Shown here: one piece after another, positions 18,268 to 64,000 of the stretch
How the letters are laid out: the number at the start of each line of letters is the position of its first letter
Position numbering within the stretch: the stretch's first letter is position 1
IMG/VR virus record: IMGVR_UViG_3300009768_000006
Location: 1-64,000 of that record
DNA: 64,000 bases
From: a virus
Taxonomy: Duplodnaviria; Caudoviricetes
Strand: one strand, 5' to 3'
The notes under the pieces: generated by a model
Seen by the model: only the letters and a program-made list of their open reading frames with translations
Told to the model about the DNA's origin: nothing
Database searches by the model: none
Position numbers and translations under genes: made by a program

Positions 18268-19029
18268 TTGGAGGCTATTTATCAACATGAATTCATATTA
18301 CCGTCATTAGGTAAGTATAACCCGGAAATCCCTGGAGGTAAGATAGTGCAGAGATGCATGATGCTCAAAGATCAACTATCTCTAAGAGGATCTAATGCTC
18401 CTGCTACAGAGAAACTTAATCAATTGATACAGAAGACTACTATAAGCCCTGAAGGTTTTGATGTATATAAATTGACTATACCTGATCTAATCTTCATGAT
18501 ATTCAAGCTCAGGATTATATCAAGAGGATCTTCCTACAATGTAAGCACTAAATGTCCTCTATGCAGTAATTCTATAGTAGCTGATATAGATTTATCTAAT
18601 CTCAATGTAGCTTATGTAGATTCAGAAGATGCAGAGGATAAGTATGTAACATTACCACATAGAGGAGATAAAGTTTATCTGCGTAGGACTACTGTAAGAG
18701 ATCTAGATGATATACAGAAAACTATCAAAAAACGTAAATCTCCTGCTATGGATGAAGGTAGTTTGAAATATCTATTTGACATAGTGTATTCAATAGATAG
18801 GATAGAGTTAGACAAACCTAATGCTGATGGTAAACGTACTCTAAAAAATCTAATAGATATAGAGATTTACGTTATGGAGTTGACAGACTTAGATGCCAGC
18901 ACCATACTAGATGGAGTGAATGATACTAAAATATATGGTGTATCAGATGAGCTAGCATACGAGTGTCCTAATTGTCGAGGAGAAATTATGATACCTATCA
19001 CTTATGCAGCTGAATTTTTTCGTAGATAA
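18268..19029 (+). CDS. Baseplate hub/tail assembly chaperone (T4 gp26-like)
   Basis: LPS.G, D...M...LRIISRG, two CxxC pairs and a C-terminal EFF; lies between tube and tape measure. Confidence 0.75.
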   Translation: MEAIYQHEFILPSLGKYNPEIPGGKIVQRCMMLKDQLSLRGSNAPATEKLNQLIQKTTISPEGFDVYKLTIPDLIFMIFKLRIISRGSSYNVSTKCPLCSNSIVADIDLSNLNVAYVDSEDAEDKYVTLPHRGDKVYLRRTTVRDLDDIQKTIKKRKSPAMDEGSLKYLFDIVYSIDRIELDKPNADGKRTLKNLIDIEIYVMELTDLDASTILDGVNDTKIYGVSDELAYECPNCRGEIMIPITYAAEFFRR

Positions 19030-46300: not shown

Positions 46301-46811
46301 TCCTAGTGGTACGAGCATTGATTGGTATTATAGCGTAGATGGAGGAGTTAATTATAAGACTATAAGTCCTTATAATATTATACTACTTGATCAACTTAAG
46401 ACTACATTTGATGTTAAAGCAACATTACGTAGAGATTCTAATAGTACTCTGTCTCCTATCGTGGCATTGGATACCATAGGATGCTCAGTATCTAAGTATG
46501 ATACAGAAGGATATTATATAACTCAGAATATATCAGGATTAGATGCTTACACGAAGGTTGATATAATCCTAGACACTTACATACCTAGTAATACTTCCTT
46601 GACTGTCTATGTTAGTAATGATAATGGAACTACATTAGAAGCAGCTACATTAGATAATCTATCAGTCAAGACTCTAAACTTCGGATGGAAAGAGCAGACT
46701 TATAAGGCTACAGTATCTAGTGCTACTCAGTGCAAGTTGTTCATAAAACTGGAATCTGATTATGAATATTTTACTCCTTCATTCAGAAGAGTAAGGATGG
46801 TAATGTATTAA
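43335..46811 (+). CDS. DUF4815-like large virion/tail structural protein
   Basis: PYYDDY...PGR..QARE.TQLQ, LARRT.DESG.Y, PGKAYV.GYE, DPVGQTF and SSN...W.....D.KF. Confidence 0.85.
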   Translation: MSMARVNINQAPYYDDYDSSKQYTQLLALPGRVAQAREFTQLQSTLKNSIKELGNSIFKDGNVVEGCQVIVNEAKTSATVTSGRVYLNGMILEVSETSVPISGTGTEIIGAKLMEAIITEADDNTLKDPAQGYDNYNQPGCHRVRSWITITVNDNEASALATLVDGELSIETYAPNYDTLTQTLARRTHDESGSYIVDGLTVRIEASDNPSNFTVVVEPGKAYVLGYELRILTPKKYSIGRSTTYDPVLATNYWYDEDVDDYLLASAPYVKEITQVKGFVSKTVNQTISNNTDRVLFDELEVSQISSVTQGATTYTVGNSDSTGDCYLQREGSRYYLKWNGTANYPTLNTSYSVTYIYNHTFINNTDYELSLVDDKHYLSWLGASTPIDGTNFTVAYNQYLARKDSVYIDRYGNINITRGIPAEYGFEVLPDKSANTLELAHIYNPPGGLVTSNSSQSIQVYNVGLTRFTMNDIQNLLNRIRTIEYDQTVLSLNDEARQYETATSKRGIFTDPLVDLARIDYYYNMSGSTVVDPSKPVYDVTIDTLKNICYLPTAVDMQDMIASNTSTAKLYNKAATLSKSGESVILTQLKATKSYQINPYSVFPQLPEISLSPSSDSWVEDNVITVPVSHSTTEILTTSTRNIELTSVISGRFTSYKESTTATVDTAIGVKVSTSSQESVINQESVMYIRQREITVEGINFPPTVDNIRCYFDGVLVALTPTGSTLAGTMSGSVKADNNGYLSAKFTIPANILTGIREVKLESAAEVAGYNKSASALYQANGTIRNIRRTITTLTTILLNRVTTISTRNYVDPVGQTFVLDKMTIINAIDLYFEAKPAGSVPVTCEIREVVNGSISSTIYGHKTLAASEVSVSSDSRTATRFVFENPVLLEENIEYAFVIRSTSPSYRIWVADLGGLDIISGDVVLANPYLIGVMMSSSNNSSWSMHQTTDVKFRLIADTYAQSSDLIFNQIAGLDFSRIYLLADYITPSGTSIDWYYSVDGGVNYKTISPYNIILLDQLKTTFDVKATLRRDSNSTLSPIVALDTIGCSVSKYDTEGYYITQNISGLDAYTKVDIILDTYIPSNTSLTVYVSNDNGTTLEAATLDNLSVKTLNFGWKEQTYKATVSSATQCKLFIKLESDYEYFTPSFRRVRMVMY

Positions 46812-46969
46812 TGAAAGAAATAAAAGACACTAGAACTGGAGCTATAATATTCAAGAAAGATGATAACGAATTAGCGATGGATAGATTACTAGAAGATATT
46901 AAGAATCTTAAACTTCGTATTGAAGCTCTAGAAAAGCTAGCAGCAGAAAAAACAAGAAAAAAAGTTTAA
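46811..46969 (+). CDS. Small coiled-coil protein (52 aa)
   Basis: TAATG-coupled ORF MKEIKDTRTGAIIFKK...LEKLAAEKTRKKV; below the ORF-track size cutoff. Confidence 0.65.
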   Translation: MKEIKDTRTGAIIFKKDDNELAMDRLLEDIKNLKLRIEALEKLAAEKTRKKV

Positions 46970-47033
46970 AAATTTTTAAAAAAATTTTAAAAACAGGCAG
47001 GTCTTTTATATCTTTTGGCGAACTATATATAAT
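46965..47033 (+). promoter_or_regulatory. Probable host sigma-A-type early promoter with A/T-tract UP element
   Basis: TATAAT at 47028-47033; TTTATA at 47005-47010 (17-bp spacer); A/T tracts at 46965-46993. Confidence 0.55.
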
Positions 47034-47077
47034 GAAAGGGAAAAATTCCCTAAAGAATTAACAAAGGAGAATTAACT

Positions 47078-47719
47078 ATGGAAAAGAAGATTAAGCTCGC
47101 CAGCAACGGTAAAGAGGTAGACTGGGAAGAAGTAGAAAAAACAGTAAGCATCATCTGCAGGAAGTTCAACAACATTAACTCTCGCTACATTGAAGATCTC
47201 GCTCAAGAACTTAGAATTCATGCTTTCTACGTTTCCAATAACTATTACGACTTATATCGTAAGGCCATTGATTTCTGGAGGACTCTGACCGTTAGAGTTT
47301 ATCCAGAAATCCCTACATTTGACATGGAAATGAACCGCAGCGCGGAAATGGTGGAAAAGGCCAGTGAAATTAACTACAAGAGTCTCCTCGCTTCCGTCAT
47401 GAAAGAACTTAATCGTCCTGGTGAGAACTTAGCTGATAAGAAAAAGAAGGATCTTGCCATTCAAATCATGATGTTGATTGTTGAGGATATTGACGAAAAT
47501 ATGGAAGTAACTGAGGATATTAACCTCGATGGAAACGAGGCTGACAGAAAGTACATTGGAGCAAAGTTGAATGCTTCTTGGGTTTCTGAGAGGTTGCACG
47601 TCAGCTACAAAGCTGTAATGGCTGCAATGAGAGAACTGGAAGAGACCTTCGTAGGACTGGCTATGATGGGTAAAGTAGTTCTTGATGATCAGTATCGTGA
47701 AAATTACAGATTACGTTAA
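47078..47719 (+). CDS. Putative phage-encoded ECF-like sigma-70 family factor
   Basis: Region-2-like EDLAQELRIHAF...LYRKAIDFWRT; C-terminal HTH-like LNASWVSERLHVSYKAVMAAM; has its own promoter and terminator. Confidence 0.6.
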   Translation: MEKKIKLASNGKEVDWEEVEKTVSIICRKFNNINSRYIEDLAQELRIHAFYVSNNYYDLYRKAIDFWRTLTVRVYPEIPTFDMEMNRSAEMVEKASEINYKSLLASVMKELNRPGENLADKKKKDLAIQIMMLIVEDIDENMEVTEDINLDGNEADRKYIGAKLNASWVSERLHVSYKAVMAAMRELEETFVGLAMMGKVVLDDQYRENYRLR

Positions 47720-47725
47720 ATCATT

Positions 47726-47756
47726 AAACCTCCTGGTTGATAATCAGGAGGTTTTT
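47726..47756 (+). terminator. Rho-independent terminator
   Basis: AAACCTCCTGGTT-GAT-AATCAGGAGGTTT-TT. Confidence 0.9.
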
Positions 47757-47832
47757 CACATAAAAGGAGGAATTTTTAATTAATTTTCGTATTTTCATCA
47801 AAATATACGTACTGTACGTGTGATAAATAGGG

Positions 47833-47855
47833 CCAACTCTCGAGTCTCAAACGTC
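47833..47855 (+). promoter_or_regulatory. Phage promoter motif copy 1
   Basis: CCAACT-N11-AACGTC. Confidence 0.7.
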
Positions 47856-47974
47856 TCTTACGCTGAAGCGTAAGCTTCCGGAGCGTATAAGCGAAGAGTA
47901 GGCGTAGCAGCGTAGGTTAAGCGTCCGCAAAGCGGACATAAGCGCAAGCGCAAGAGACGGCCGTAGGCCGGAAG
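47852..47974. other. GC/CpG-rich multi-hairpin element (candidate replication origin/primer RNA or ncRNA)
   Basis: Outer inverted repeat 47852-47864 / 47947-47959, several mini-hairpins and nine RGCG units; no ORF. Confidence 0.55.
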
Positions 47975-48034
47975 TATATATAAAATTATCTTATATCTAT
48001 CGAGCTATATGTAGATATGAATCTAGATAATTTC

Positions 48035-48057
48035 CTAACTCTATGACATCTAACGTT
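48035..48057 (+). promoter_or_regulatory. Phage promoter motif copy 2
   Basis: CTAACT-N11-AACGTT, upstream of the HD gene. Confidence 0.8.
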
Positions 48058-48082
48058 ACTTATTACGAAGGAGAGATTTAAT

Positions 48083-48784
48083 ATGTATGAAAATCTTAGT
48101 AAGCTTTTATCCTCACCTCTTATGAATCTAGATCATGTCTATAGATATAGTGGTATTAAACAACAAGAGATGGAATCTATAGCTATCCATACTTTTGAAG
48201 TTCAAATGCTAGGTACTATGATTATAGATACTCTCCAGAATTATCATAATGAGAAAGACCTAGATATTAATAAATTTCTTAATCTAGCTTTTCATCATGA
48301 TTTAGAAGAAGCTATTACAGGTGATATACCTAGACCTCTTAAGTATCATGATAGTAATATTCATGAATCTTTAAATTCTATAGCTGAGCTAGTAGCTAAG
48401 GATCTATTCAGAAATAACTTCTTGGATTGTTCTTCTCATTATAAATCTTGGTCAGATGCTAAATCAGGTAAAGAAGGTCTTATTGTAAAATTAGCTGATA
48501 CTCTTACAGTAGTATCTAAGACTATAAAAGAAATAGAGTTACTAGGTAATAAGTATTTTCTTAAAGTAGCTCTAGAAGTAAGATATTACTTAAATGAATT
48601 GGCTAAGAATATAGCTTGTACTGAATTAGACTTCAATTATCATAGCAAAATGTATATGAATGATCTACTTTTAGAAGCTTCTAATCATCTAGGAAATATA
48701 CTTTCTAAATATAGTGAGATAATTGATACGTGTATAACTATTGATAATACTATGATAAATAATAATAAAGGAGAATGTGAATGA
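48083..48784 (+). CDS. HD-domain phosphohydrolase (YfbR-like 5'-deoxynucleotidase)
   Basis: RY...ES.A.H, HHDL.EA.TGDIP.P.K and VKLAD. Confidence 0.88.
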   Translation: MYENLSKLLSSPLMNLDHVYRYSGIKQQEMESIAIHTFEVQMLGTMIIDTLQNYHNEKDLDINKFLNLAFHHDLEEAITGDIPRPLKYHDSNIHESLNSIAELVAKDLFRNNFLDCSSHYKSWSDAKSGKEGLIVKLADTLTVVSKTIKEIELLGNKYFLKVALEVRYYLNELAKNIACTELDFNYHSKMYMNDLLLEASNHLGNILSKYSEIIDTCITIDNTMINNNKGECE

Positions 48785-49539
48785 CCAACATAACTATCTT
48801 TGAGCCTCATGGTGATGATGCTCTTATATCTTGCTATAAATTATTAAGATCGGAGGATAATAATAAGCACATAATCACTTTCTCTGACAGATCTTCTAAT
48901 AAACTAGAGGATAGACCAGAATTACCTAATGTTACTACTCAATTCCTAAATATCCCTGATGTACATTATGACAATCGTATCAAGTATAATACCTATGAAT
49001 TGAAAAGATTGCTAAGCTCTAATGTAGACATCTACAGTTCCTATATAAATGACTCAGATAAATTCTATAGTAAAGATATAGGAATAGACTTCGTAGATAA
49101 TTATAGTAGGCATAAAGCTGCTATAATGGAGAAACTGGATAATACTGATGTAATTTTACTACCTTTCGGATTATTCCATCCTAACCATTTCATGACCAGA
49201 GATGTATTGGAAAGATTAATCTACTCTATGGATCTACAAGATAAACTTCTATACTACATAGACAAACCTTACATAGAGAAGAAATATGTACAATACATGT
49301 TGACTTCAGCTATGAATAATATGCATTATACGTCTAATACAGTATTAGACTATGATAAAGAAGATCCTGAAATCAAACTAGACATATTCAGAGAATGCTA
49401 TCCTACTGAACAAGGATTGCTTAGATACTCTAGAAATACAGTATTGAATAGTCCTGATATGATAGTAAGCACAATCATCAACAATACTAAAGTAAGAGTA
49501 TTCTTAGATACACTTATGATAGAAGGAGTAAGATTGTAA
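48781..49539 (+). CDS. PIG-L/LmbE-family de-N-acetylase
   Basis: FEPHGDDA (PHxDD) and HPNH (HxxH) metal-binding motifs; D.PY. Confidence 0.8.
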   Translation: MTNITIFEPHGDDALISCYKLLRSEDNNKHIITFSDRSSNKLEDRPELPNVTTQFLNIPDVHYDNRIKYNTYELKRLLSSNVDIYSSYINDSDKFYSKDIGIDFVDNYSRHKAAIMEKLDNTDVILLPFGLFHPNHFMTRDVLERLIYSMDLQDKLLYYIDKPYIEKKYVQYMLTSAMNNMHYTSNTVLDYDKEDPEIKLDIFRECYPTEQGLLRYSRNTVLNSPDMIVSTIINNTKVRVFLDTLMIEGVRL

Positions 49540-49540
49540 C

Positions 49541-50683
49541 ATGAAAGTATTATACTTTTGCTACTTGAAAAGTGATCCTAAGCTATGGCCTACTCTAGGA
49601 GATATGAGAATGGCTGTAGAAATGAGTAGAGCTCTAGGAAATAACTATGGCATAATCCTAGCAGGAGATTTTAGATCCTTTACTGCAGATGAAGCCTATG
49701 AGTTGTGTAGTTCATACAATGCTATAGATTATCTGGACCTAGGTGAGTATTGTGACAGTGCTAGGTACATTAGTAATTCCGCTAAATCTCTCAAGAATAT
49801 CATAGATAACTATGATCTTATCCATGTTCATACATCTAAGTTAGGTGTCATGAGTACTATAAGAAGATTATATCCTAATATTCCAATGGTTGTATCTTAT
49901 CATAGTCCTCCTGAGACATCAGAAGTAGGTCATTTCTATAAAGATGATCTACTGAAATTCCTCAATCAGTCTGATTTCAGATTCGTATGTAACAGTAAGT
50001 CTCATAAACAACGTATGATAAATACTCTAAATGTACCAGTGCATACTGTAACTAGCTTAACCTATGCCTATAATGCAATTACTGATATATATAATGTAGA
50101 TAATACTACTAAAATATATAATACTGGTACTATAGGTAGAATAACCTCTGTGAAACGGATGCTTGATTTGGTGAAGTATTTTAAGTATCTGTATGAGAGG
50201 ACAGGTGTGCAGTCTTATTATGTAGGAGATATAGGTCCTTATGAAAAGTCTCCTGATGCTATCAAGTACTATGAAGACTGTAAATATTATCTAGAATCTC
50301 CTGCTATAGACTGGATAAAATTTGCTACTCCTATTGAAATAGGACATATAGTGAAACAAGCTTATACATATACTACATTCAGTCAAGTAGAAACGTTTGG
50401 ATTGACTCTACTAGAAGCTGGATTATCAGGTATACCTAGTGTAGTATTTGATGTAGCAGGACACGGTGAGATTATAGATACAGGATGCAATGGGTATAAA
50501 TTGAGTATCCCAGACAAGAAACGTTATAAAATATCAGATCTTCATGGAGATTTCTATCAACTTGATACTATGGCTAGGGAACTTGATCCAGTTAAAGTAA
50601 GAGAGTATACTAAGAATAAATTCAATATGGATAAACTCTATAAAGACTTCGATAGGATATACAAGGAGGTATTAAATGGATAA
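49541..50683 (+). CDS. GT-B glycosyltransferase, family 4
   Basis: DLIHVH, GRI...KR and SQVETFGLTLLEAGLSGIP...EII..G.NG (EX7E motif). Confidence 0.92.
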   Translation: MKVLYFCYLKSDPKLWPTLGDMRMAVEMSRALGNNYGIILAGDFRSFTADEAYELCSSYNAIDYLDLGEYCDSARYISNSAKSLKNIIDNYDLIHVHTSKLGVMSTIRRLYPNIPMVVSYHSPPETSEVGHFYKDDLLKFLNQSDFRFVCNSKSHKQRMINTLNVPVHTVTSLTYAYNAITDIYNVDNTTKIYNTGTIGRITSVKRMLDLVKYFKYLYERTGVQSYYVGDIGPYEKSPDAIKYYEDCKYYLESPAIDWIKFATPIEIGHIVKQAYTYTTFSQVETFGLTLLEAGLSGIPSVVFDVAGHGEIIDTGCNGYKLSIPDKKRYKISDLHGDFYQLDTMARELDPVKVREYTKNKFNMDKLYKDFDRIYKEVLNG

Positions 50684-51365
50684 TTTAGTGCAACGAGACT
50701 ACAATGAGCATCTCAGGATTAACTCTGAGAAATCTAATGTCATGGATGATAAGTATAAACTCTCTGACGATCCGTGGGGTAATGGTGCTAGAGACTTATA
50801 CACAATACCTATGAGTAGAGTGGTTAGTCTCGTGAAGAATCATATAAGCTATCAAGATAGCAAGAATAATATCACCTGGTTAGATATAGGATGTGGTGGT
50901 GGATTTGTAGGTAGAGCTATTCGAAAGGCTCTCGTAGAAAATAATATGAATATCTGTATGGAAGGCTACGATATTTCTGATACAGCTATAAATAGGCTTT
51001 ATGATAATCCTTCTCATAATCCCTATGATATATTATCAGTAGTTGATATGGAAGAAGTGACTGATGGTAGTTGCTATAAGCATGCGACCATAGTATCATT
51101 AGTAGAAGTGCTCTATTACTTAGGTACTAAGAGACCTTGGAAGAAGTCTGTAGATATGCTATGGGATTCATTACCTATAGGAGCTATAGTGGTAGTAGCA
51201 GATGGTCTTATCCCTTATCAATATAGAGATTATCTGAAAACTAAAGCAGATGCTTCTCTATTACACAGCTATACAGATCCTGATACAGTAGTGAGTGAGG
51301 AAACTACATCAGCTGGTAAAAAGTGGAAACGTAATCTAAAAGTACGTATCTATCAAAAGGGCTAA
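50676..51365 (+). CDS. Class I SAM-dependent methyltransferase, NodS-like
   Basis: DDPW near the N-terminus, WLDIGCGGG, GYDIS..A and EVLYYL. Confidence 0.8.
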   Translation: MDNLVQRDYNEHLRINSEKSNVMDDKYKLSDDPWGNGARDLYTIPMSRVVSLVKNHISYQDSKNNITWLDIGCGGGFVGRAIRKALVENNMNICMEGYDISDTAINRLYDNPSHNPYDILSVVDMEEVTDGSCYKHATIVSLVEVLYYLGTKRPWKKSVDMLWDSLPIGAIVVVADGLIPYQYRDYLKTKADASLLHSYTDPDTVVSEETTSAGKKWKRNLKVRIYQKG

Positions 51366-51384
51366 CTCATAGCATCTGAACGTT
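51362..51384 (+). promoter_or_regulatory. Phage promoter motif copy 3
   Basis: CTAACT-N11-AACGTT. Confidence 0.8.
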
Positions 51385-51390
51385 TATATA

Positions 51391-51535
51391 GTTGTAAGTG
51401 GTCGCTCAAGTAAGTCAAATGATCCGATGAAAGTGGACAATCTGGACGAGTTGAGAAAGGGTGAGTTCCGATGCAGTAGGTAGTATTATAAAATGCTTTA
51501 TAGATAAAATGAGGACGCTCTTTCGCCCTCAACCA
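51391..51535 (+). ncRNA. Candidate structured small RNA of unknown family
   Basis: Bounded by promoter copy 3 and a terminator; no credible ORF; several complementary segments. Confidence 0.5.
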
Positions 51536-51569
51536 ATAAGCCTCCTACAAGTTAGAGGAGGCTTATTTT
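51535..51569 (+). terminator. Rho-independent terminator
   Basis: AATAAGCCTCCT-ACAAGTTAG-AGGAGGCTTATT-TT. Confidence 0.88.
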
Positions 51570-51580
51570 ATAATAATTGC

Positions 51581-51603
51581 CTAACTTAATAGAGTACAAC
51601 GTC
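51581..51603 (+). promoter_or_regulatory. Phage promoter motif copy 4
   Basis: CTAACT-N11-AACGTC. Confidence 0.8.
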
Positions 51604-51635
51604 TTTATAGTTGCTTACAAAGGAGGTTCAAAATT

Positions 51636-51965
51636 ATGAACAAAAAGTGCTTGGCAAGTCCCGTCTTGGTGGATGCAGTACTGATCAAAGACATTGTAGA
51701 TGCAGCTAAAATCGACGAGTATGAGTCTATGCCTGTGTGGGTTCGTAGAGCATTGGACGACGGTAGGCTGGTTATTAACGCTAAAGGAGTCGCTGTTGAA
51801 AGATATCAAGGAGAAATCTTGTATGGTAAGATGAGCGACTACTTGGTAAAAGGCTTGAACAATGACATTATCACTGTGAAAAGTACCATGTTCAGTGTCT
51901 ATTACAGTGTGGTGGATTACAAATCTCTCAACAAACAATTTCGAGAAGAGTCAGGTGTGATCTAA
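51636..51965 (+). CDS. Hypothetical phage protein
   Basis: Strong RBS AAGGAGGT; V.VDA...P.W...DYLVKG pattern common in small phage proteins. Confidence 0.75.
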   Translation: MNKKCLASPVLVDAVLIKDIVDAAKIDEYESMPVWVRRALDDGRLVINAKGVAVERYQGEILYGKMSDYLVKGLNNDIITVKSTMFSVYYSVVDYKSLNKQFREESGVI

Positions 51966-51966
51966 G

Positions 51967-53754
51967 TTGACTAATTATGACGATAAGTCTATCAGAGTCT
52001 TAGGGGACATAGAGCATGTAAGACTTCGCCCAACTATGTATATAAACACGGATAGGCCTAGTTTCCAGATGTTCGATGAAATATTCTCTAACGCTCTTGA
52101 TGAAGCTATAAATGGCTATGCTACGGAATTATCTGTAGAAATAGACTATAAACAATCGAAGATAACTGTTACAGATAACGGTAGAGGCTTGCCACAAGGA
52201 ATCAATGAAGAGACAGGTAAGCCTACTATCGTTATAATCTATAGCAAGCTCAATTCAGGAGGTAAGTATAACCAAGATAGCTATGGTATATCTGGAGGAT
52301 TAAATGGAGTAGGATCTTGCGTAGTGAATGCTCTATCAAAACGTCTAGATGTAGTAACATGGAGAGATAAAATAGCTAAACATGCATCATTCAGTGAAGG
52401 TATCTTGACAGTATATGAGTCTATAGGAAATTACAAGTCCAAATCCAAATCTGGTACTATCGTATCATATTTTATAGATACTGATCACAAAATATTCACT
52501 AGTGATAGTCTTAGTACATATGAGCAAGACATATTAAACAAATTTAGGTTGGTTAAGACTTTAAGACCTGATATTAACTTAGTTTATAATGGGTCTGCTG
52601 TAGATCCTGTAGAATTAGATAAGTTCCTAGTATTCACTAAATCTACACTTTTAGATAATTCTATCATATACAATTCTAAAGACATTAAGTTAGCTATCAA
52701 CTGGAGCATAGATACTAATGTATTGCATCAGCAAACTTACTGTAATTTCATCCACAATATATTAGGCGGAGATAATGAAAAAGGATTAGAAGATGCTCTT
52801 GTAGAGTATTTTAATAATCGTGATATATTATTAGGATTACGTCTAGTAATTTCTACTATGTATCCTAATGTAGAATATGATTCTCAAGCGAAGCTAAAAG
52901 CTGTATCTAAAGACATGAGATTGTATGTAAAGGATAAAGTCCTAGCATATCTTAAGAATTATTTTAAATCAAATCCTGATGATAAAGAGAAGATAATTCA
53001 ACTCATCAATACTAAACGAGTTGATATGAATAAAAGGAACAATAAGAGCAATGTTCGCAGGGATAGGAAAACAGCCTATTTGAATGCTCTAGGAGTAAAT
53101 GGTTTTGCTGATTGTACAACGAAGTGTAGGGATGATGCTGAGCTTTACATATGTGAAGGTGAGTCAGCTGCGGGGTCTTTGAAGCAAGCTAGGGACGTCT
53201 TAACTCAGGCAATCATGCCCTTGAGAGGGAAGTTCATTAATGCTTACACTGCTGATGTCTCCTCATTATTGAAGAATGCGGAAGTAGCTACACTATTATC
53301 CAGTATTAATACAGGAATATATGAAGAAGCTAATATAGTAAAGTCTAGATATGGTAAGATAATAATAACTACAGACGCAGATGAAGATGGTAAGAATATT
53401 GCTTGTCTGCTTATAGCATTCTTCGCTAATACCATACCAGATTTACTGAGGAATGGTCTAATATACTTAGCATTGCCTCCACTATACGGTACTAATATTA
53501 AGAATACATTTATCCCTATATATACTGAATTAGAGAAGGATAGATATTTAGCCCAAGGTGCATATGTACAACGTTATAAAGGTTTGGGTGAAATGTCCGT
53601 CCCTCAGATAAGTCTCTCCTGCATGAATAAGGAGACTAGAAAAATACTGCAATTAGTATCTACTGACGCATGTATGAAAGTGGTGGCTGATATTATGGGT
53701 AGTAATTCAGATTACAGAAGAGATCTTCTTAAGAAAGTAGGTGTACTGCTATGA
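51967..53754 (+). CDS. Type IIA DNA topoisomerase, B subunit (GyrB/ParE-like)
   Basis: HVRLRPTMYI, EIFSNALDE, DNGRGLP, GLNGVG..VVNALS, EGESA, PLRGK, DADEDG and RYKGLGEM. Confidence 0.95.
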   Translation: MTNYDDKSIRVLGDIEHVRLRPTMYINTDRPSFQMFDEIFSNALDEAINGYATELSVEIDYKQSKITVTDNGRGLPQGINEETGKPTIVIIYSKLNSGGKYNQDSYGISGGLNGVGSCVVNALSKRLDVVTWRDKIAKHASFSEGILTVYESIGNYKSKSKSGTIVSYFIDTDHKIFTSDSLSTYEQDILNKFRLVKTLRPDINLVYNGSAVDPVELDKFLVFTKSTLLDNSIIYNSKDIKLAINWSIDTNVLHQQTYCNFIHNILGGDNEKGLEDALVEYFNNRDILLGLRLVISTMYPNVEYDSQAKLKAVSKDMRLYVKDKVLAYLKNYFKSNPDDKEKIIQLINTKRVDMNKRNNKSNVRRDRKTAYLNALGVNGFADCTTKCRDDAELYICEGESAAGSLKQARDVLTQAIMPLRGKFINAYTADVSSLLKNAEVATLLSSINTGIYEEANIVKSRYGKIIITTDADEDGKNIACLLIAFFANTIPDLLRNGLIYLALPPLYGTNIKNTFIPIYTELEKDRYLAQGAYVQRYKGLGEMSVPQISLSCMNKETRKILQLVSTDACMKVVADIMGSNSDYRRDLLKKVGVLL

Positions 53755-55632: not shown

Positions 55633-55651
55633 CTCTTGAGGATTGAACGTT
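55629..55651 (+). promoter_or_regulatory. Phage promoter motif copy 5
   Basis: CTAACT-N11-AACGTT. Confidence 0.8.
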
Positions 55652-55672
55652 GTTTATGTTGAGGTGAGGAAA

Positions 55673-56515
55673 ATGTGCAAAGTATATTTAGCTTCTGGTT
55701 GGTTCGACGAAATTTCTATGAGAGACATCAATGTACTAGAAGATACATTGTTATCACTTCCTGTCGATGCTTACCTGCCTAGGATTCATGGGAAGCTACT
55801 GAATGCAGGAGAGAAGAATGATGCTTCAGTCCGCAAGTCTATATATGAAGAGAACATGAAACATATAGACGAAGCAGATATAGTAGTAGCCAATGTTAAT
55901 TCTGCTGTGAAGTATTATGATCAAGGAACTATGTATGAGCTAGGATACGCATTAGCTGAGAACAAGCACGTAATCTGCGTGAATCTCAATAAGAATCCAC
56001 CTAAGTACGAGTCTATACACGTAAATACTGTATATAGCCTGCATGAGTTAAAGCAGGCTATCAGACGATATATTGAAAGAATTGACTATGATCGTAAAGG
56101 TACGATCTATTACATCAGCGATTCTTCTCTATATGAAGAACCAGATTATTTCGATAATATGTCTATACTTAAGTTGTTAGATTATTATGAGATTGTATGC
56201 CTGGATGAGAATATTAAATATGCTCAGTCAACTATAGCGAAGCTGAAACGGTTCACTAATAAAGATTTACTGTTCGCTGTGATAGATAATAGGCATCCTG
56301 TAGTATCAATGGCTATAGGAGCAGCAAAGTCTGTAGGGTTGCCTGTAGTAACTTATACTAATCATGATTATGGAGTAAATGTCATGCTCCTCGAGTCCAT
56401 TCACTCTCATATAAAAGGATCTGAAGAATTGGTGAAGTTCGTAGAAGCATTGAAATCAGAAGGAGGTATCAATAGTCTTGATAGGAGTGATACGAAGAAT
56501 ATTCGTACTTATTAA
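55673..56515 (+). CDS. Nucleoside 2-deoxyribosyltransferase-fold N-glycosidase, apparently two tandem domains
   Basis: VYLASGWF, I...N..HI..AD.VVA and D.GT.YELGYA.A; second degenerate copy (IG.A...G.PVV...N.ML). ATG 55673 follows GAGGTGAGG, and the track's TTG start lies inside the promoter motif. Confidence 0.82.
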   Translation: MCKVYLASGWFDEISMRDINVLEDTLLSLPVDAYLPRIHGKLLNAGEKNDASVRKSIYEENMKHIDEADIVVANVNSAVKYYDQGTMYELGYALAENKHVICVNLNKNPPKYESIHVNTVYSLHELKQAIRRYIERIDYDRKGTIYYISDSSLYEEPDYFDNMSILKLLDYYEIVCLDENIKYAQSTIAKLKRFTNKDLLFAVIDNRHPVVSMAIGAAKSVGLPVVTYTNHDYGVNVMLLESIHSHIKGSEELVKFVEALKSEGGINSLDRSDTKNIRTY

Positions 56516-59469: not shown

Positions 59470-60519
59470 ATGAGAGATGATTACAAGATATTAGTAGAGA
59501 GTAAACTCACTCCTGTAGGTATTAATGGTGATGATGTAATCTACAGATGTCCTGTATGTGAAGCTGTAAAAGGATCTGGTCATCTTCAGGTAAATTATAA
59601 AATAAATAAATATAATTGCTTTAAGTGTGATGTAGGAGGTTCTGATATAAAGAATCTACTGCACTTACTTAAAGTAGACGTGAGCATGGATTATGATGCT
59701 CTTTACAGTAGTTATGAGAAGAAATTAGACAATATCATATCATCTAAGTCAGCTAAGAAGCAGGTAACTACAATAAAAGATTATAGTAGAGATCTTAAGG
59801 TACTAACGTCCTATTATGATCAGCATACAAAACCATTAACTCCTGTAGCTAGGAGTTATTTAATATCTAGAGGATTAACTGATGATATAATAATGAAGCT
59901 ACGAATATCTGAAGGAGTGAATAGATATAACGAGATTATTAAGATAAATAATAAAGAATATCTAGGTAGAGATTATAGTGGTAGAGTGATGGTACCTTCT
60001 ATATACGAAGATAATACTATATCATTCTTCGTAGGTAGGGATTACACAAATACTAAAAATAATAAGTATCTTAATCCTCCTAAGGATCTAGCATTCTCCT
60101 CTGAAGATGTATACAATTTGAACTTAGTAGAATCTAATTCAGTTATTATATGTGAAGGTGTATTTACAGCTATAACTGTGATAGCAGGTTCAGGTAAAAT
60201 AAATGCTGTAGCTACCTATGGTAAATCTATAAGCAGTAAATCTAACTCAAATGAATCGGTAACTAGTCAAGGTGAGAAATTACTAGCTAGAAAGTTCCAT
60301 ACATATTATATAGCTTATGATGCAGATGCAATGAAGAATTCTATAGAGTCTGCTAAATATCTTAATGATAGAGGAGCTAATGTTAAAGTAGTACTAATTG
60401 ATCCTCTAGTTTATGGAGCGAAAGCTGATATAAATGATATAGGTTATCAAGAATTCGTAAAACTTCTAAATAATTCGTTAACTTATGATAAGTACATTAG
60501 GCTAACTTTACTGAATTGA
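59470..60519 (+). CDS. DNA primase (DnaG-like)
   Basis: Zn finger CPVC...H...CFKC, YL..RG, GR...KYLN and TOPRIM motifs CEG.F.A and YDAD. Confidence 0.9.
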   Translation: MRDDYKILVESKLTPVGINGDDVIYRCPVCEAVKGSGHLQVNYKINKYNCFKCDVGGSDIKNLLHLLKVDVSMDYDALYSSYEKKLDNIISSKSAKKQVTTIKDYSRDLKVLTSYYDQHTKPLTPVARSYLISRGLTDDIIMKLRISEGVNRYNEIIKINNKEYLGRDYSGRVMVPSIYEDNTISFFVGRDYTNTKNNKYLNPPKDLAFSSEDVYNLNLVESNSVIICEGVFTAITVIAGSGKINAVATYGKSISSKSNSNESVTSQGEKLLARKFHTYYIAYDADAMKNSIESAKYLNDRGANVKVVLIDPLVYGAKADINDIGYQEFVKLLNNSLTYDKYIRLTLLN

Positions 60520-60524
60520 ACGTT
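60502..60524 (+). promoter_or_regulatory. Phage promoter motif copy 7
   Basis: CTAACT-N11-AACGTT. Confidence 0.8.
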
Positions 60525-60560
60525 TCTATATACGTAAGAATTGTAATGGAGGTATTACTA

Positions 60561-61046
60561 ATGATAATGAGTTTCTCGGTGGACCATACAAAATTAGTAC
60601 CAGGACTCTATCTTTCAGAGAAGATAGGTAACATCTCTATCTGGGATATCAGGATGGTGGCTCCTTCATCTAAGAAGAAGCTCACAGGTCCTGTAGTTCA
60701 CACTTTGGAGCACCTCCTAGCATTCTATATTAGATTGCATTTAGGAGAGAAGAAAGTCATAGGGTTGTATCCTATGGGATGCAAAACAGGATTCTATCTG
60801 GTTACTAAAAGAGCTAGTAAACATCAAGTATTGGAAGCGATGAAAGATGTCTTCCATATATTCTATACGAATGCTCAAGGGAGTTGGGAGGATAGAAATA
60901 TTATAGCTATCCCTGGAGCTACAGAGAAAAGTTGTGGGAATCCTAACTACCACAATCTTCCTGAAGCTCTGAAAGAAGCAGCTAAGTACTATGATAAGCT
61001 GTATATGCTGTACACTGTAGATATGGACTATGATAACTTAGTATAA
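60561..61046 (+). CDS. luxS: S-ribosylhomocysteine lyase LuxS
   Basis: SF.VDHTK, HTLEHL, PMGCKTGFY and IPGA....CGN...H.L; ATG 60561 follows GGAGGT. Confidence 0.92.
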   Translation: MIMSFSVDHTKLVPGLYLSEKIGNISIWDIRMVAPSSKKKLTGPVVHTLEHLLAFYIRLHLGEKKVIGLYPMGCKTGFYLVTKRASKHQVLEAMKDVFHIFYTNAQGSWEDRNIIAIPGATEKSCGNPNYHNLPEALKEAAKYYDKLYMLYTVDMDYDNLV

Positions 61047-61061
61047 AGGAGAATATTACTA

Positions 61062-62111
61062 ATGAAGAGTGATAGGTTGGTACAAGGTAATTTTACAGGT
61101 CCTATAAGACCTACAGCTAAAATCATAAGTCATACTAGTTATCCTATCGGTACTTTGTATACTGTATGGACAGGTACTAGATATGGTAGATGTCTGGATC
61201 CTAAGGTAGTTCAGGAGATTTATGATGGTAATTGGACAGAGGATCGCAGGGACGAAGTTGAATTCATCTGTAAATGCTATCCTGAGTATACTGGTAGTTG
61301 GACTAGTAGGAAGACGCAGGCTTCCTCTGTGATTCTAGCGATTGCTCAGAAAGTCATAGAGTCAAATGTTCCTGCAGGAGAAGCGGTTCATCTTAATATC
61401 CAGATAGACAATGCTAGTGTTGCATGGCGTGAGCAGCTAGTCAGAGGTAGGATATCTCAACAATTCTGGACTATGTCTACTAGGATCATGGACATGACGT
61501 CTATGGATGTGAACATGAATGATAGCATAAATCTTATCGGTGGTGAAGAAGCTGTAAAAATTTATGAGGATACTGTTCAGACTATCAGAGATGCTTATAC
61601 TAAACTGATTGACCTAGGTATCCCTGTAGAGGATATCAGACTGCAACCTCAGAATCATGTTCATAGAGTGTACTGGATGGTTCCTCTACGTACGTTGGTA
61701 ACTATTCTGAATAAACGTAGTGACTGGATCGCACAAGGATCTCTTTGGACTCCTATTGTATCCAGTATCATCTTAGCTCTAAGACAGATAGGGCTTTACA
61801 ATGTTATAGCTCCGTTCATAGGGAAGCCTATGGTTGAGTTCTCAAAGGATCCTGAAGGGAACTATTTTGTTTCTAAATATATAATGGAAGCAGATAATGA
61901 AGATAGGTATAGTGGGAGAGATAAACTTCCATGTGATCCTCTATGGCTAGCATACAGACATAAAACGATGCCAGCTCATACTAACATAGAGCATTATGAT
62001 TATCTGAAGTCTGTCTACATGAATATTTGGTCTGATGAATATTTGGAAATACTAGGATGGGATAGGGAGAATCCTGAGCAGTTAGGTTACTACGATAGAC
62101 CTCAGGCATAA
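61062..62111 (+). CDS. Divergent ThyX-like (flavin-dependent thymidylate synthase fold) protein
   Basis: EQLVRGR...MSTR (cf. RHRx7SxR), Y..L...G.P.ED.R and R.L......R....AQ. Confidence 0.7.
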   Translation: MKSDRLVQGNFTGPIRPTAKIISHTSYPIGTLYTVWTGTRYGRCLDPKVVQEIYDGNWTEDRRDEVEFICKCYPEYTGSWTSRKTQASSVILAIAQKVIESNVPAGEAVHLNIQIDNASVAWREQLVRGRISQQFWTMSTRIMDMTSMDVNMNDSINLIGGEEAVKIYEDTVQTIRDAYTKLIDLGIPVEDIRLQPQNHVHRVYWMVPLRTLVTILNKRSDWIAQGSLWTPIVSSIILALRQIGLYNVIAPFIGKPMVEFSKDPEGNYFVSKYIMEADNEDRYSGRDKLPCDPLWLAYRHKTMPAHTNIEHYDYLKSVYMNIWSDEYLEILGWDRENPEQLGYYDRPQA

Positions 62112-62123
62112 CAAAAGATAGGA

Positions 62124-62747
62124 GTGTTCTTACAAATGAGCAAGTTTATAGGGATATCAGGTCCTACATGTACTTACAAAAGTACTATACATGCCTTATT
62201 GAAGAAAGTACTGCCTACGGATCCTAAAATAGTATACCTGGATGATATCCATGATACTGTATGGAATAACTTGGTAAAGAGTGGTGTATTCTTTAACTAT
62301 CAAGAACTGACTAGCGATAGAGATTACTTACTCATGTACATATCCAAGCTGATAGATTACTATGCTAGTCAGATAGAGAAATACAAATACACTGATAACA
62401 TTGTAATCATGGATGGGTGTATCGTAGACATATTAGTCTACAGTATGTTGAATACCTGGTATCATTATCCAGTGAAAGAGTATACAGAGAAACTGATGGA
62501 AAAACTACTGAAGTATATGGATTACATAGACAATGTATTCATCACTATTCCTGATAAGAATAACGAAGAGAAACTTCAGTACAGCAGAAGAGCTCAACAA
62601 ACTGCATTTAAGAAGAACAGGCCTCTAGAATGTTCATACTACAACATAGCTGGAGGTTTGCGTATATGTACGAAGCTTACATCAGACATAGTAAGTAATG
62701 CTAATATTATAAAAGAAAAAGTGCTAGAGTATGTAGCCTTACTGTGA
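62124..62747 (+). CDS. P-loop nucleoside/nucleotide kinase-like protein (AAA_28/dNK-like); start may be ATG 62136
   Basis: Degenerate Walker A ISGPTCTYKST; D....D..VY. Confidence 0.6.
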   Translation: MFLQMSKFIGISGPTCTYKSTIHALLKKVLPTDPKIVYLDDIHDTVWNNLVKSGVFFNYQELTSDRDYLLMYISKLIDYYASQIEKYKYTDNIVIMDGCIVDILVYSMLNTWYHYPVKEYTEKLMEKLLKYMDYIDNVFITIPDKNNEEKLQYSRRAQQTAFKKNRPLECSYYNIAGGLRICTKLTSDIVSNANIIKEKVLEYVALL

Positions 62748-62783: not shown

Positions 62784-63509
62784 ATGCTCATAATAGATTC
62801 CATGGATAAACTACTAAACCACATAATAACAAATTGTTTTGAATATGACGGAATAGTAGTAGAAGGCTATGATTGTGTAGGTAAAGGTAGAGTACTAACT
62901 GATATAGCCTATGGATTAAATACTACTGTATATAGACCTGATTATACTGTATGGACTCCTGAATTCTTAGGGAAAGAGGAAAGATGGAAGCTATCAGCTT
63001 ACTATTTGGATATATGTTCTAAGCTTCATATTCCTAGAAAATCATTGAATATCCAGGAATTCAGGAATAATCCTATAGACATATTTGATAGAGGAGTATT
63101 GTCAGGATATGTTTATAACCATGTAGATATAAGAAAATTCTACAAGGAGATATTAAGAGACTACAGACTACTTCATGTGATAGTGACCTGTGATGAATAT
63201 AGTTTCTTCAAATACTTAGAATCTAGAAATAATAATATCACTGAGCAGCAGAAGCATGAGGAATTATTTAAATTAGCAGTTTACACTGAGTCATATGTTA
63301 ATATTGCGAAGGAATTAGACCTATTAGCTTGTGTCTATATTAACAGTTATGATCAATGCAAAGATAATTCTAATACTTGTGAAGGCTGTGGGCATTATAG
63401 CTATGGTGTATGTAAGAATCCTAGAAGTGATTATTATAACAATACAGTTAATGATAATTTGAGCAGATGTAAAGTATCTAATGACGAGGAGATACAAGAT
63501 GTACAATAA
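62784..63509 (+). CDS. Thymidylate/dNMP kinase-like protein with a C-terminal Cys cluster
   Basis: VVEGYDCVGK (EG.D..GK), FDRG..S..VY; C-terminal CEGCGH....C...C. Confidence 0.7.
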   Translation: MLIIDSMDKLLNHIITNCFEYDGIVVEGYDCVGKGRVLTDIAYGLNTTVYRPDYTVWTPEFLGKEERWKLSAYYLDICSKLHIPRKSLNIQEFRNNPIDIFDRGVLSGYVYNHVDIRKFYKEILRDYRLLHVIVTCDEYSFFKYLESRNNNITEQQKHEELFKLAVYTESYVNIAKELDLLACVYINSYDQCKDNSNTCEGCGHYSYGVCKNPRSDYYNNTVNDNLSRCKVSNDEEIQDVQ

Positions 63510-64000
63510 ATGTGACCTTTGTAATTATAGTCAAGGAGCTTTTCATCAGATTGAGCCTATAGGGAACTGCCAAGATGATGAGTGTGAGCTCCTGATTATA
63601 GGAGATTATCCTAAGGCTGAAGATGATGCTTCAGGATATCCATTGTCAAATAGTAATCTTCAATTTTATTGGGAATTACTAAATGATCTTAAAGTAAAAT
63701 ATAAAGTAGTGTATGCTATGAAATGCATACCTATAGATTATAGAAATCGTAGGTATATGAAACCTACTATAAGTGACTTCGATACATGCATAAGGAATAA
63801 CCTCGTAAATTATATAGTTAAAGTAGCTCCTGAGTGTATCCTGACATTAGGACAGTTGGCTTTAGAAATTATGCTTGGCGAGGGTAAGAAGATAGGAGAT
63901 TACAGAGAAAGAGCTGCTACGATTAGGATTCCTAATAAATCAGTGAAACTTATCTCTACTTATAGCCCTTCTTATGCAGTTGATAATGAATCTACTATGT
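63499..64000 (+). CDS. Family-4 uracil-DNA-glycosylase-like (Fe-S) domain, 3'-truncated; possibly the N-terminus of a DNA polymerase
   Basis: Open to the window end: MYNKCDLC...LLIIGDYPKAEDD..G.PL...KCIP...P...C...P.CILTLG..A...STYSPSY. Not in the ORF track because it has no stop in the window. Confidence 0.75.
   Translation, partial: MYNKCDLCNYSQGAFHQIEPIGNCQDDECELLIIGDYPKAEDDASGYPLSNSNLQFYWELLNDLKVKYKVVYAMKCIPIDYRNRRYMKPTISDFDTCIRNNLVNYIVKVAPECILTLGQLALEIMLGEGKKIGDYRERAATIRIPNKSVKLISTYSPSYAVDNESTM

Follow-up and report, generated by a model that had tools for sequence, protein, structure and literature searches.

Four translationally coupled genes of a metagenome-derived phage appear to form an amino-sugar tailoring line, whose most likely target, in a judgment that falls a shade short of even, is the phage's own DNA. 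The window analyzed here comprises the first 64,000 nt of the 102.5-kb genome, and the operon occupies positions 48083–51365 on the plus strand, with open reading frames that fill exactly the bounds given by an earlier sequence-only reading. The four genes and their flanking signals are as follows.

47729..47756, plus strand: terminator closing the preceding tail-gene unit (hairpin and T-run)
48034..48056, plus strand: first copy along the genome of the phage promoter motif CCTAACT-N11-AACGT
48083..48784, plus strand: gene 1, HD 5'-deoxynucleotidase, YfbR-like (233 aa)
48781..49539, plus strand: gene 2, predicted PIG-L/LmbE-family zinc de-N-acetylase, divergent (252 aa)
49541..50683, plus strand: gene 3, GT4-type GT-B glycosyltransferase with an EX7E motif (380 aa)
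50676..51365, plus strand: gene 4, class I SAM-dependent methyltransferase with a NodS-like layout (229 aa)
51540..51569, plus strand: hairpin and T-rich tail, read from the sequence; the first terminator-like element past the operon

Genes 1 and 2 overlap by ATGA, genes 2 and 3 are 1 nt apart, and genes 3 and 4 overlap by 8 nt; terminators bound the operon on both sides (47729–47756 and 51540–51569). The upstream one, a G+C-rich 7-bp stem with a 9-nt loop followed by TTTTT, is absent from the consensus scan output and was identified by reading the letters directly. The promoter motif CTAACT-N11-AACGT, which starts at 48035 at the operon, occurs in 17 copies in the genome, all on the plus strand and spread from 48035 to 99378; shuffled sequences gave an expectation of 0 copies, and a genome scan found none in the structural half. 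The upstream neighbor of the operon is an SPO1 gp16.2-like tail protein, and topoisomerase II, helicases, primase, and polymerase lie downstream. The sequence-only reading had described four coupled genes behind one promoter-motif copy at the head of the replication module, and the reading frames, junctions, motif position, and downstream genes all agree with it; its enzyme assignments and every motif it quoted (HD, PHxDD/HxxH, EX7E, and DDPW/EVLYYL) were likewise borne out. Co-regulation of the operon with the replication genes is supported by their common promoter class. No membrane-type segment was found in any of the four proteins.

By sequence profile and structural model, the gene 2 product, though divergent, is a true PIG-L/LmbE-family protein, a predicted zinc de-N-acetylase of a mainly viral clade. 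It carries PHGDD at residues 9–13 and HPNH at 133–136; H10, D12, D13, H133, and H136 are near-invariant (at least 90% conserved) among 104 relatives, and both zinc motifs align with those of Dbv21 and Orf2*. In this family, the first motif provides the zinc-binding His and Asp along with the catalytic Asp. The single sequence had no match in Pfam; 40 of the 104 relatives match PF02585 at E ≤ 0.01 (best 3.8e-7), and the 104-sequence profile retrieved Dbv21 (1.6e-11) and Orf2* (6e-9) from the PDB. The predicted structure (pLDDT 72, pTM 0.77) was ambiguous in Foldseek by itself. VIA-align placed it in the LmbE-type Rossmann-like fold, superposing it on Dbv21 with a Z score of 9.7 (175 residues aligned, rmsd 4.1, identity ~15%), followed by diacetylchitobiose deacetylase (3we7, Z 8.9), BC1534 (2ixd, Z 8.8), 1uan (Z 8.1), and MshB (Z 7.8). 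Viral members make up 93% and 71% of the nearest Atlas clusters, and the viral PIG-L clade counts 239 representatives at 50% identity.

The glycosyltransferase matches Glyco_transf_4 (40.2 bits, Pfam cut-off 28.5) and Glycos_transf_1 (38.1 bits, cut-off 26.4), two domains that the L005 and L016 orthologues also carry, and its EX7E motif (E284-X7-E292) falls in the C-terminal domain. Its top PDB and NCBIfam neighbors, all well under equivalog cut-offs, are BshA, Gtf1/GtfA, and SdgA/B. BshA gives the best full-length match (5d00, residues 89–376; TIGR03999, 1.1e-10), and at 41 bits against an equivalog cut-off of 273.7 the protein was rejected as a BshA equivalog; the Gtf1/GtfA and SdgA/SdgB matches lie mainly in the shared C-terminal donor-binding half (residues 252–324). 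All these neighbors use UDP-GlcNAc, and the donor here is probably a UDP-HexNAc. The nearest characterized relatives act on malate or proteins, not on DNA, which counts against a DNA acceptor.

The methyltransferase, with DDPW at residues 31–34 and EVLYYL at 144–149, found in Pfam only generic class I matches, all sub-threshold. Its profile reached the BpumL/BamL N-methyltransferases (6e-7), NodS (3ofj, 1.1e-4, residues 22–162), and a sugar N,N-dimethyltransferase (3bxo, 4e-4) in the PDB, and the sequence suggests an N- rather than an O-methyltransferase. The likeness to NodS proposed earlier stands in the motifs, in the 3ofj match, and in three NodS clusters that figure in the top ten Atlas structure matches (best TM 0.74), but Foldseek ranks METTL6, RlmA, and TehB first and many others equal to NodS. 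Membership of the NodS family itself did not hold: PF05401 gave no match at E ≤ 1 and was matched by 2 of 13 close homologues (best 0.063). The substrate class is not readable from the modeled fold.

The HD protein is a clear match to the YfbR-like family PF12917 (1e-24; 87.7 bits against a cut-off of 25.9), with metal ligands H36, H72-D73, and D139 aligned with those of YfbR, and it also matches E. coli YfbR (2paq, 5e-10) and phrog_7076 (1.3e-34), whose label, "dATP triphosphohydrolase", is an annotation only. It scores below threshold for the NCBIfam YfbR equivalog (58.3 vs. 122 bits) and also resembles OxsA, an enzyme of a nucleoside-analogue pathway. The DatZ-type dATPase considered in the sequence-only reading was rejected, since the protein is nearer the dNMP nucleotidase YfbR and PurZ (PF00709) had no match in the 102.5-kb genome, with 14 of 14 control genomes matched. 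The closest phage homologues are those of LIS04, SP-15, HSE3, YerA41, and Carin-5, and others occur in EP_H11 and IME392. In SP-15 and HSE3, the homologue stands alone between helicase and primase; thus, nothing inherent ties this gene to a sugar module, and finding it here tells little about the sugar genes.

The three remaining genes are tied to one another by gene fusions. In the natural protein P0039, a member of the deacetylase clade is fused with a methyltransferase that shares 36% identity with the operon enzyme (3e-35), and in P0139 and P0154 the clade is fused with GT-B transferases. A survey of gene neighborhoods showed that the operon genes co-occur, with the order HD, PIG-L, glycosyltransferase, methyltransferase, topoisomerase II, and Ndt kept in two IMG/VR contigs at ~30–40% identity. 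Homologues of different operon genes also have longest contigs of the same 4453, 5475, and 16,269 bp, which suggests that they share contigs. Fusions and synteny together support the reaction order put forward earlier, in which HexNAc would be added, de-N-acetylated, and then N-methylated.

We propose that the operon encodes a soluble, cytoplasmic amino-sugar tailoring line transcribed together with the replication genes. In the first step, the retaining GT4 enzyme would move an N-acetyl-hexosamine from a UDP-sugar onto a hydroxyl, the PIG-L-type zinc amidase would strip the N-acetyl group, and the NodS-like methyltransferase would methylate the freed amine once or more. That the acceptor is DNA we consider about evenly balanced; it would most likely be newly replicated phage DNA, at a C5-modified uracil or thymine whose precursor may come from a divergent ThyX and a dTMP-kinase-like gene. 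The HD nucleotidase, and perhaps an Ndt-fold protein, may lower the pool of competing canonical deoxynucleotide. The phage DNA would end up bearing a positively charged sugar, as a block to restriction or CRISPR nucleases. Five genes downstream of the operon bear on this proposal.

55643..56515, plus strand: Ndt-fold protein, possible dNMP/nucleoside N-glycosidase (290 aa; PF05014, 9e-19)
60516..61046, plus strand: LuxS, S-ribosylhomocysteinase (PF02664, 2.9e-35)
61062..62111, plus strand: ThyX-like protein, divergent (349 aa; PF02511, 1.2e-12)
62124..62747, plus strand: P-loop dTMP-kinase-like protein (207 aa; AAA_28, 1.5e-6)
63481..64000, plus strand: beginning of a UDG-fused A-family DNA polymerase, the UDG domain at its N terminus (980 aa in total; runs off the window)

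The Ndt-fold gene, which has its own promoter copy at 55628 and phage homologues only in LIS04 and SP-15, may be functionally linked to the operon. The ThyX-like protein matches PF02511 over profile positions 54–171 only; it is 43% identical to LIS04_124, has RHR changed to RGR, and is encoded in both relative contigs. Neither ThyA nor TET, enzymes that might install a hydroxyl handle, has a homologue in the phage, a point against the DNA reading, and the divergent ThyX is left as the only handle-making candidate. It may make a modified pyrimidine nucleotide, or may instead serve simple dTMP synthesis. The kinase-like protein falls under the cut-off of the dTMP kinase model TIGR00041 (2.1e-5). 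The UDG domain of the polymerase (PF03167, 1.5e-11, above cut-off) spans 63568–64008 within one 986-aa open frame; the polymerase best matches the SPO1/SP-10 type at 25–27% identity and has 980 aa, against 1306 aa for that of YerA41 (PMC13697223). MetK and a Pfs-like nucleosidase (PNP_UDP_1) are encoded elsewhere in the genome, the latter under the cut-off of MTA/SAH nucleosidase models (1.5e-12); with LuxS, they can supply SAM and remove SAH, which fits a high methyl flux. Protein-family scans of the genome returned no sugar-nucleotide synthesis gene.

The case for DNA as the target is circumstantial. It draws on the confinement of the promoter class to the replication half, the closest cultured relatives of the HD and Ndt-fold genes, which fall in the SP-15/LIS04 group (for HD also in YerA41 and Carin-5), the UDG-fused polymerase, the divergent ThyX, and the phage's own MetK, Pfs, and LuxS. 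By analogy, it also draws on a distant deacetylase homologue in the Pseudomonas phage QdP_Psa3, set in a block of thymidylate synthase, glycosyltransferase, and sugar-nucleotide genes. There, the homologue's gene comes after that for the DNA polymerase and is followed by genes for a GT4, an epimerase, and another glycosyltransferase; genes for a divergent thymidylate synthase and a UDP-glucose dehydrogenase are nearby. A more specific version, which we regard as possible but doubtful, is that the phage has a pyrimidine of its DNA replaced by, or decorated with, one bearing an N-methylated (possibly di- or trimethylated) hexosamine on a C5 side chain made by the divergent ThyX. This would give the first cationic amino-sugar DNA base. 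The MetK/Pfs/LuxS cycle would pay for stoichiometric methylation, and the viral PIG-L clade would be the general means of unmasking HexNAc on DNA across several lineages of phage, the cultured QdP_Psa3 group among them.

Phage DNA that carries glycans withstands restriction enzymes, many CRISPR nucleases, and standard sequencing methods. If confirmed, the operon would represent a new kind of DNA armor; its methylated amino sugar would bring positive charge, fixed or titratable, into the major groove, where known DNA glycans are neutral or anionic. It would also give phage-borne MetK, Pfs, and LuxS a reason besides interference with quorum signals. New DNA chemistries have each yielded tools and explained phage host-range failures, the viral PIG-L clade, with its fusions, could be searched for as a marker of such pathways, and the QdP_Psa3 group, being cultured Pseudomonas phages, would already allow the idea to be tested.

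Known DNA glycosylation systems resemble the proposed one in part. LIS04, SP-15, YerA41, Carin-5, EP_H11, and IME392 have been grouped as SP15-like (PMC13697223), with glycosylated thymine derivatives reported for three of them (SP-15, YerA41, and Carin-5) and expected by inference in the others. All six have an HD homologue, and the Ndt-fold gene is found in LIS04 and SP-15 as well. A UDG-fused polymerase is also common to both sides (PMC13697223), but the best matches of the one here are of the SPO1/SP-10 rather than the SP15 type. Both sides have a glycosyltransferase block among the replication genes; here, the block includes a methyltransferase, and the scans returned no sugar-nucleotide synthesis gene. 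The HD homologue of Carin-5 lies next to the polymerase, on whose other side is a block with GlcNAc N-deacetylase-like and HexNAc-transferase-like genes that its authors assign to the making of the thymidine glycan (PMC12686479). No homology of the operon transferase and deacetylase to these enzymes was found, so the parallel is one of analogy only. YerA41 and Carin-5 resisted standard sequencing, unlike the present genome, which was assembled completely from ordinary metagenome data; this counts against a modified DNA.

In T4 (glucosyl-hmC), GlcNAc-5hmC, and RB69/DLP3 (arabinosyl-5hoC), a sugar is added after replication to the hydroxyl of a modified pyrimidine, as proposed here, whereas this phage lacks a ThyA or TET handle-maker. 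BshA-like GT4 enzymes have been assigned as DNA arabinosyltransferases in DLP3 and RB69, two of the DLP3 enzymes with experimental confirmation (PMC13326640). The chemistry, which the sequence-only reading took as not known from phage DNA, is not wholly unprecedented, because GlcNAc on 5hmC is a proven, TET-linked DNA adduct (PMC8256090) and Carin-5 has its deacetylase/transferase block (PMC12686479). The literature covered on T4, TET, RB69, and DLP3 DNA glycosylation describes neither deacetylation nor methylation of the sugar.

Outside DNA, the chemical logic is identical to that of NodB/NodS, in which a terminal GlcNAc is de-N-acetylated and the amine N-methylated, and DPW and EVLYYL are common to both methyltransferases; NodB is a CE4 enzyme, however, whereas the deacetylase here is PIG-L, and PF05401 is unmatched. 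Orf2* and Dbv21, the teicoplanin and A40926 pseudoaglycone deacetylases and the best profile and structure matches to the gene 2 product, similarly remove N-acetyl from a GlcNAc already on a large acceptor, whose amine is then re-derivatized, but by acylation rather than methylation; sequence identity to them is only ~15%.

The strongest alternative, which we consider unlikely, is that the product is a soluble small molecule or tailored nucleotide, akin to bacillithiol, mycothiol, or an aminoglycoside, with a role in infection as metabolite, signal, or inhibitor, and with the HD enzyme acting on a phosphorylated intermediate. GT4 and PIG-L pairs define the MshA/MshB, BshA/BshB, and BtrM/BtrD steps, and BshA/BshB and MshA/MshB show the same two families in the same order, with the HxDD and HxxH zinc motifs kept here. 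BshA is the best full-length match of the transferase, Dbv21 and Orf2* work on small glycopeptide aglycones, and the HD protein resembles OxsA. Every score, however, is far under its equivalog cut-off (BshA being the case in point), and Pfam, PHROG, and NCBIfam scans of neighboring genes returned no BshC/MshC-type cysteine ligase, as the sequence-only reading had noted for BshC. The deacetylases form a separate, mainly viral clade, found within the replication modules of four unrelated or distant phages, and the phage-encoded methyl cycle would suggest stoichiometric rather than catalytic-scale use. Malate or inositol phosphate is probably not the acceptor.

Less probable still is modification of a host envelope glycopolymer (wall teichoic acid, a lipoteichoic acid anchor, or a glycolipid) on the cytoplasmic face, to block superinfection or reduce progeny loss on debris, on the model of TarM/TarP-type GlcNAc transferases. 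Teichoic-acid GlcNAc transferases are found among GT4 enzymes, the operon transferase is a weak match to a model for N-acetylglucosaminyl phosphatidylglycerol synthase (4.6e-4), and the phage lineage is related to phages of Gram-positive hosts. The SP-15 modification cluster, moreover, resembles teichuronic-acid genes (PMC5977210). Against this, the operon proteins are soluble, with no membrane-type segment; the promoter class is common to the operon and the replication genes; the first gene is a nucleotidase; and the fusion and synteny partners all have cytoplasmic tailoring or replication functions.

Protein O-glycosylation, in which a sugar, perhaps on virion proteins, would be trimmed and methylated, is very unlikely: the operon directly follows tail genes, and Gtf1/GtfA and SdgA/SdgB, of which GtfA, SdgA, and SdgB O-glycosylate serine-rich proteins, are among the top transferase matches, but mainly in the shared donor-binding half, a terminator separates the tail genes from the operon, its promoter class is missing from the structural half, and we know of no protein-linked GlcNAc that is de-N-acetylated and then N-methylated.

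As a minor point in favor of DNA as the target, and one of little evidential weight, palindromes are not strongly avoided, with 444 GATC sites and a median O/E of 0.94–0.96.

The IMG/VR virus record (whole genome, G000) is 102,551 bp long with direct terminal repeats, and the window is its first 64 kb. Its G+C content is ~34%, and the + strand carries all long ORFs. The phage is predicted to be a distant SPO1/Herelleviridae-like myovirus because its large tail protein (43335-46811) is 33–34% identical to SPO1 gp16.2 and relatives. ORF calling placed the four proposed genes exactly at 48083-51365, as claimed in the sequence-only reading. The first junction is an ATGA overlap, the second a 1-nt gap, and the third an overlap of 8 nt. 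The layout is as follows:

47729-47756: hairpin and T-run terminator that closes the tail-gene unit, upstream of the operon
48034 (start), + strand: promoter motif CCTAACT-N11-AACGT, 49 nt 5' of the first operon start codon
48083-48784, + strand: HD protein
48781-49539, + strand: deacetylase
49541-50683, + strand: transferase
50676-51365, + strand: methyltransferase
51540-51569: hairpin and T-run terminator, 3' of the fourth operon gene

The promoter core CTAACT-N11-AACGT occurs 17 times, always on the + strand and between 48035 and 99378, with no copy in the structural half or in shuffled sequence. Because the core recurs from 48035 onward, the operon is the predicted first unit of a regulon that would also drive topoisomerase II, an Ndt-fold gene, LuxS/ThyX, an exonuclease, and others; the phage encodes a sigma factor of its own. 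A blastn search of the operon region against phage genomes found no match, and an Rfam scan of 46800-52000 returned a single match at chance level. The intergenic region separating the tail-unit terminator from the operon promoter includes a G+C-rich, repeat-like stretch (47820-47970; GCGTAAGC/AGCG), conspicuous in a genome of 34% G+C, that contains a looser promoter-like copy at 47834, has no Rfam match, and may be a structured RNA. A possible small RNA unit lies at the other end (51362-51580): there, a second copy of the promoter motif overlaps the stop codon of the methyltransferase gene, and ~180 nt with two hairpins and the terminator come next, ahead of a third copy at 51581.

The deacetylase alone matched no Pfam or PDB entry. 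An exhaustive profile search collected 239 representatives of its clade, and a 104-sequence profile matched the PIG-L structures Dbv21 (1.6e-11) and Orf2* (6e-9), as well as diacetylchitobiose deacetylase and, weakly, MshB, with both the HxDD and HxxH motifs aligned in the matches to PIG-L structures. PF02585 was matched by 40 of the 104 relatives, and H10, D12, D13, H133, and H136 are nearly invariant. Foldseek on the AlphaFold model (pLDDT 72) was ambiguous, returning many Rossmann folds, and the fold was resolved by VIA-align, whose best matches were LmbE-fold chains (Z 9.7 to 7.8). Viral members make up 93% and 71% of the nearest ESM-Atlas clusters. The PIG-L de-N-acetylase identity originally read from motifs is thus borne out in both fold and motifs by the profile, PF02585-matching relatives, and VIA-align, and the protein is confidently predicted to be a real PIG-L-fold enzyme of a mainly viral clade. 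Among phages, tblastn found a homologue only in the cultured Pseudomonas phage QdP_Psa3, and a metagenome scan for related loci returned only contigs of 1.6–2.3 kb.

The transferase was assigned to GT4 from the outset, and both Pfam domains, together with E284-X7-E292, identify it as a GT4 GT-B enzyme. Its best characterised neighbours are BshA (over the full length), Gtf1/GtfA, SdgA/SdgB, and GlcNAc-phosphatidylglycerol synthase, all of which use UDP-GlcNAc. A UDP-GlcNAc-type donor is only a moderate inference, because the scores against all these models are far below equivalog cut-offs. In phages, tblastn of the transferase gave one short match.

Family models identify the fourth protein as a class I methyltransferase. 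A 13-sequence profile matched the N-methyltransferases BpumL/BamL (6e-7), NodS (1.1e-4, with the match extending over the N-terminal DPW region), and the sugar N,N-dimethyltransferase 3bxo (4e-4), along with RlmA and Hen1; NodS clusters are among the nearest Atlas structures (TM 0.74). The protein does not match the PF05401 (NodS) model, and Foldseek on its structural model did not discriminate between substrates, so the ‘NodS-like’ label is best read as resemblance and not as family membership.

Three lines argue that the operon enzymes act together: natural fusions, synteny and, by inference, shared contigs. In P0039 (449 aa), a deacetylase-clade domain is fused to a methyltransferase 36% identical to that of the operon (3e-35), and in P0139 and P0154 the same clade is fused to GT-B transferases. 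The gene order (tail protein, HD, deacetylase, GT4, methyltransferase, topoisomerase II, Ndt) is preserved on two related IMG/VR contigs, L005 and L016, although their proteins are only ~30–40% identical. Homologues of two or three operon genes have longest contigs of matching length (4453, 5475, and 16269 bp), which suggests that these homologues share contigs. Deacetylation generates a single new functional group, a free amine, and the simplest role for a methyltransferase fused to the deacetylase would be to methylate it. A predicted complex of deacetylase and methyltransferase scored 0.00, which counts neither for nor against. In both relatives an extra ~380-aa gene lies after the methyltransferase and before topoisomerase II (L005:3450-4586, L016:9072-10220); Pfam, NCBIfam, and PDB yielded no match for it, and this phage genome lacks a copy, with a 109-aa ORF (51636-51965) in the corresponding position. 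L016 has an additional 150-aa ORF between HD and deacetylase.

The HD protein matches PF12917 (YfbR-like, 1e-24), E. coli YfbR (5e-10), and OxsA, and keeps the H...HD...D ligands. Its PHROG label, ‘dATP triphosphohydrolase’, is annotation only, and a Z-genome is ruled out because PurZ is absent from the genome. Among cultured phages, the nearest HD homologues occur in LIS04 (44%), SP-15 (38.5%), HSE3, YerA41, Carin-5, EP_H11, and IME392.

What the pathway acts upon is a closer call, and we regard phage DNA as the acceptor at roughly even chances, on a circumstantial case made of several independent strands. The operon is under a replication-type promoter, with a terminator between it and the tail genes, and the phage homologues of the Ndt-fold gene are confined to LIS04 and SP-15. 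The following genes also bear on this point (L002 and L003 are stretches of G000):

61062-62111, + strand: ThyX-like protein, 349 aa, divergent, with a Thy1 profile match confined to the profile's centre
63481-64000 and onward (L002:481-3423), + strand: A-family DNA polymerase, 980 aa, with an N-terminal UDG domain
60516-61046, + strand: LuxS
G000 93165-94292 (L003:11165-12292): MetK (SAM synthetase)
G000 95634-96239 (L003:13634-14239): Pfs-like MTA/SAH nucleosidase

Both relatives retain the ThyX-like gene, which shares 43% identity with LIS04_124 and has a dTMP-kinase-like gene after it; the ThyX motif of the encoded protein is the RGR..S..STR version (RHR to RGR), and its similarity to the divergent Thy1 gp130 of SP-15 is not significant (E 0.073). 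Cultured carriers of UDG-polymerase fusions include hmU-containing and T-hypermodified phages. Together, LuxS, MetK, and the Pfs-like nucleosidase can provide SAM and clear SAH, which is what one would expect were a large share of the bases each to consume a methyl group; LuxS would additionally release an AI-2 precursor. Palindrome avoidance is not strong, which is weak evidence and not decisive for DNA modification.

Against DNA, neither of the classical handle makers, ThyA and TET, was found in the genome; the ThyX-like protein may function as a conventional thymidylate synthase; the HD homologue stands on its own among the replication genes of SP-15 and HSE3; known relatives of the transferase act on malate or proteins; and the genome was assembled from ordinary metagenome reads. 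A small molecule or nucleotide as the operon's product seems rather unlikely. Modification of an envelope glycopolymer is more improbable still, to be set between the GlcNAc-phosphatidylglycerol synthase resemblance and the finding that none of the four operon proteins has a membrane-type segment. Protein glycosylation, which the protein-directed relatives would allow, is the most doubtful for an operon separated from the tail genes.

DNA as the acceptor also has parallels in cultured phages. SP-15, LIS04, YerA41, Carin-5, EP_H11, and IME392, all among the phages with the nearest HD homologues, were grouped as SP15-like by Missoury et al., with T-glycosylation measured in some and inferred for the rest (PMC13697223). 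A thymidine glycan was measured in Carin-5 by mass spectrometry. Its polymerase has the HD homologue on one side and, on the other, a block of glycosyltransferases with a GlcNAc-deacetylase-like gene, a block that the authors assigned to the glycan (PMC12686479). Neither the deacetylase nor the transferase of Carin-5 is a homologue of its operon counterpart, so the parallel is one of convergent logic, not orthology. The QdP_Psa3 locus contains a member of the deacetylase clade itself:

PV055685.1, 108-114.8 kb and 1-12 kb (L001, L022): cluster that begins with the polymerase, the PIG-L-clade gene, a GT4, an epimerase, and a second GT

The PIG-L-clade member (23% identity) follows the DNA polymerase, and the cluster continues across the genome ends with a divergent thymidylate synthase, a second epimerase, UDP-glucose dehydrogenase, and a nucleotidyltransferase. 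This is a probable DNA-glycosylation cluster, with a layout resembling those of RB69, DLP3, and RL38J1; in DLP3 and RB69, BshA-like GT4 enzymes were assigned as DNA arabinosyltransferases, two confirmed experimentally (PMC13326640).

For phage DNA, this chemistry was new to the sequence-only reading. Full-text literature searches found no paper in which phage DNA is associated with PIG-L/LmbE enzymes or with N-methylated amino sugars; GlcNAc on 5hmC is already known (PMC8256090), as is the deacetylase gene of the Carin-5 block. For these two reasons, the pathway predicted for this uncultured phage would belong within phage DNA glyco-hypermodification and would not be a new category.

Elsewhere in the genome, a second class I methyltransferase (182 aa, G000 89126-89674, L003:7126-7674; Methyltransf_23 1.6e-9) adjoins a DUF932 gene. 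The anaerobic ribonucleotide reductase NrdD and a small radical-SAM activase-like gene (G000 96640-98487 and 100486-100944; L003:14640-16487 and 18486-18944) suggest an anaerobic or facultative host.
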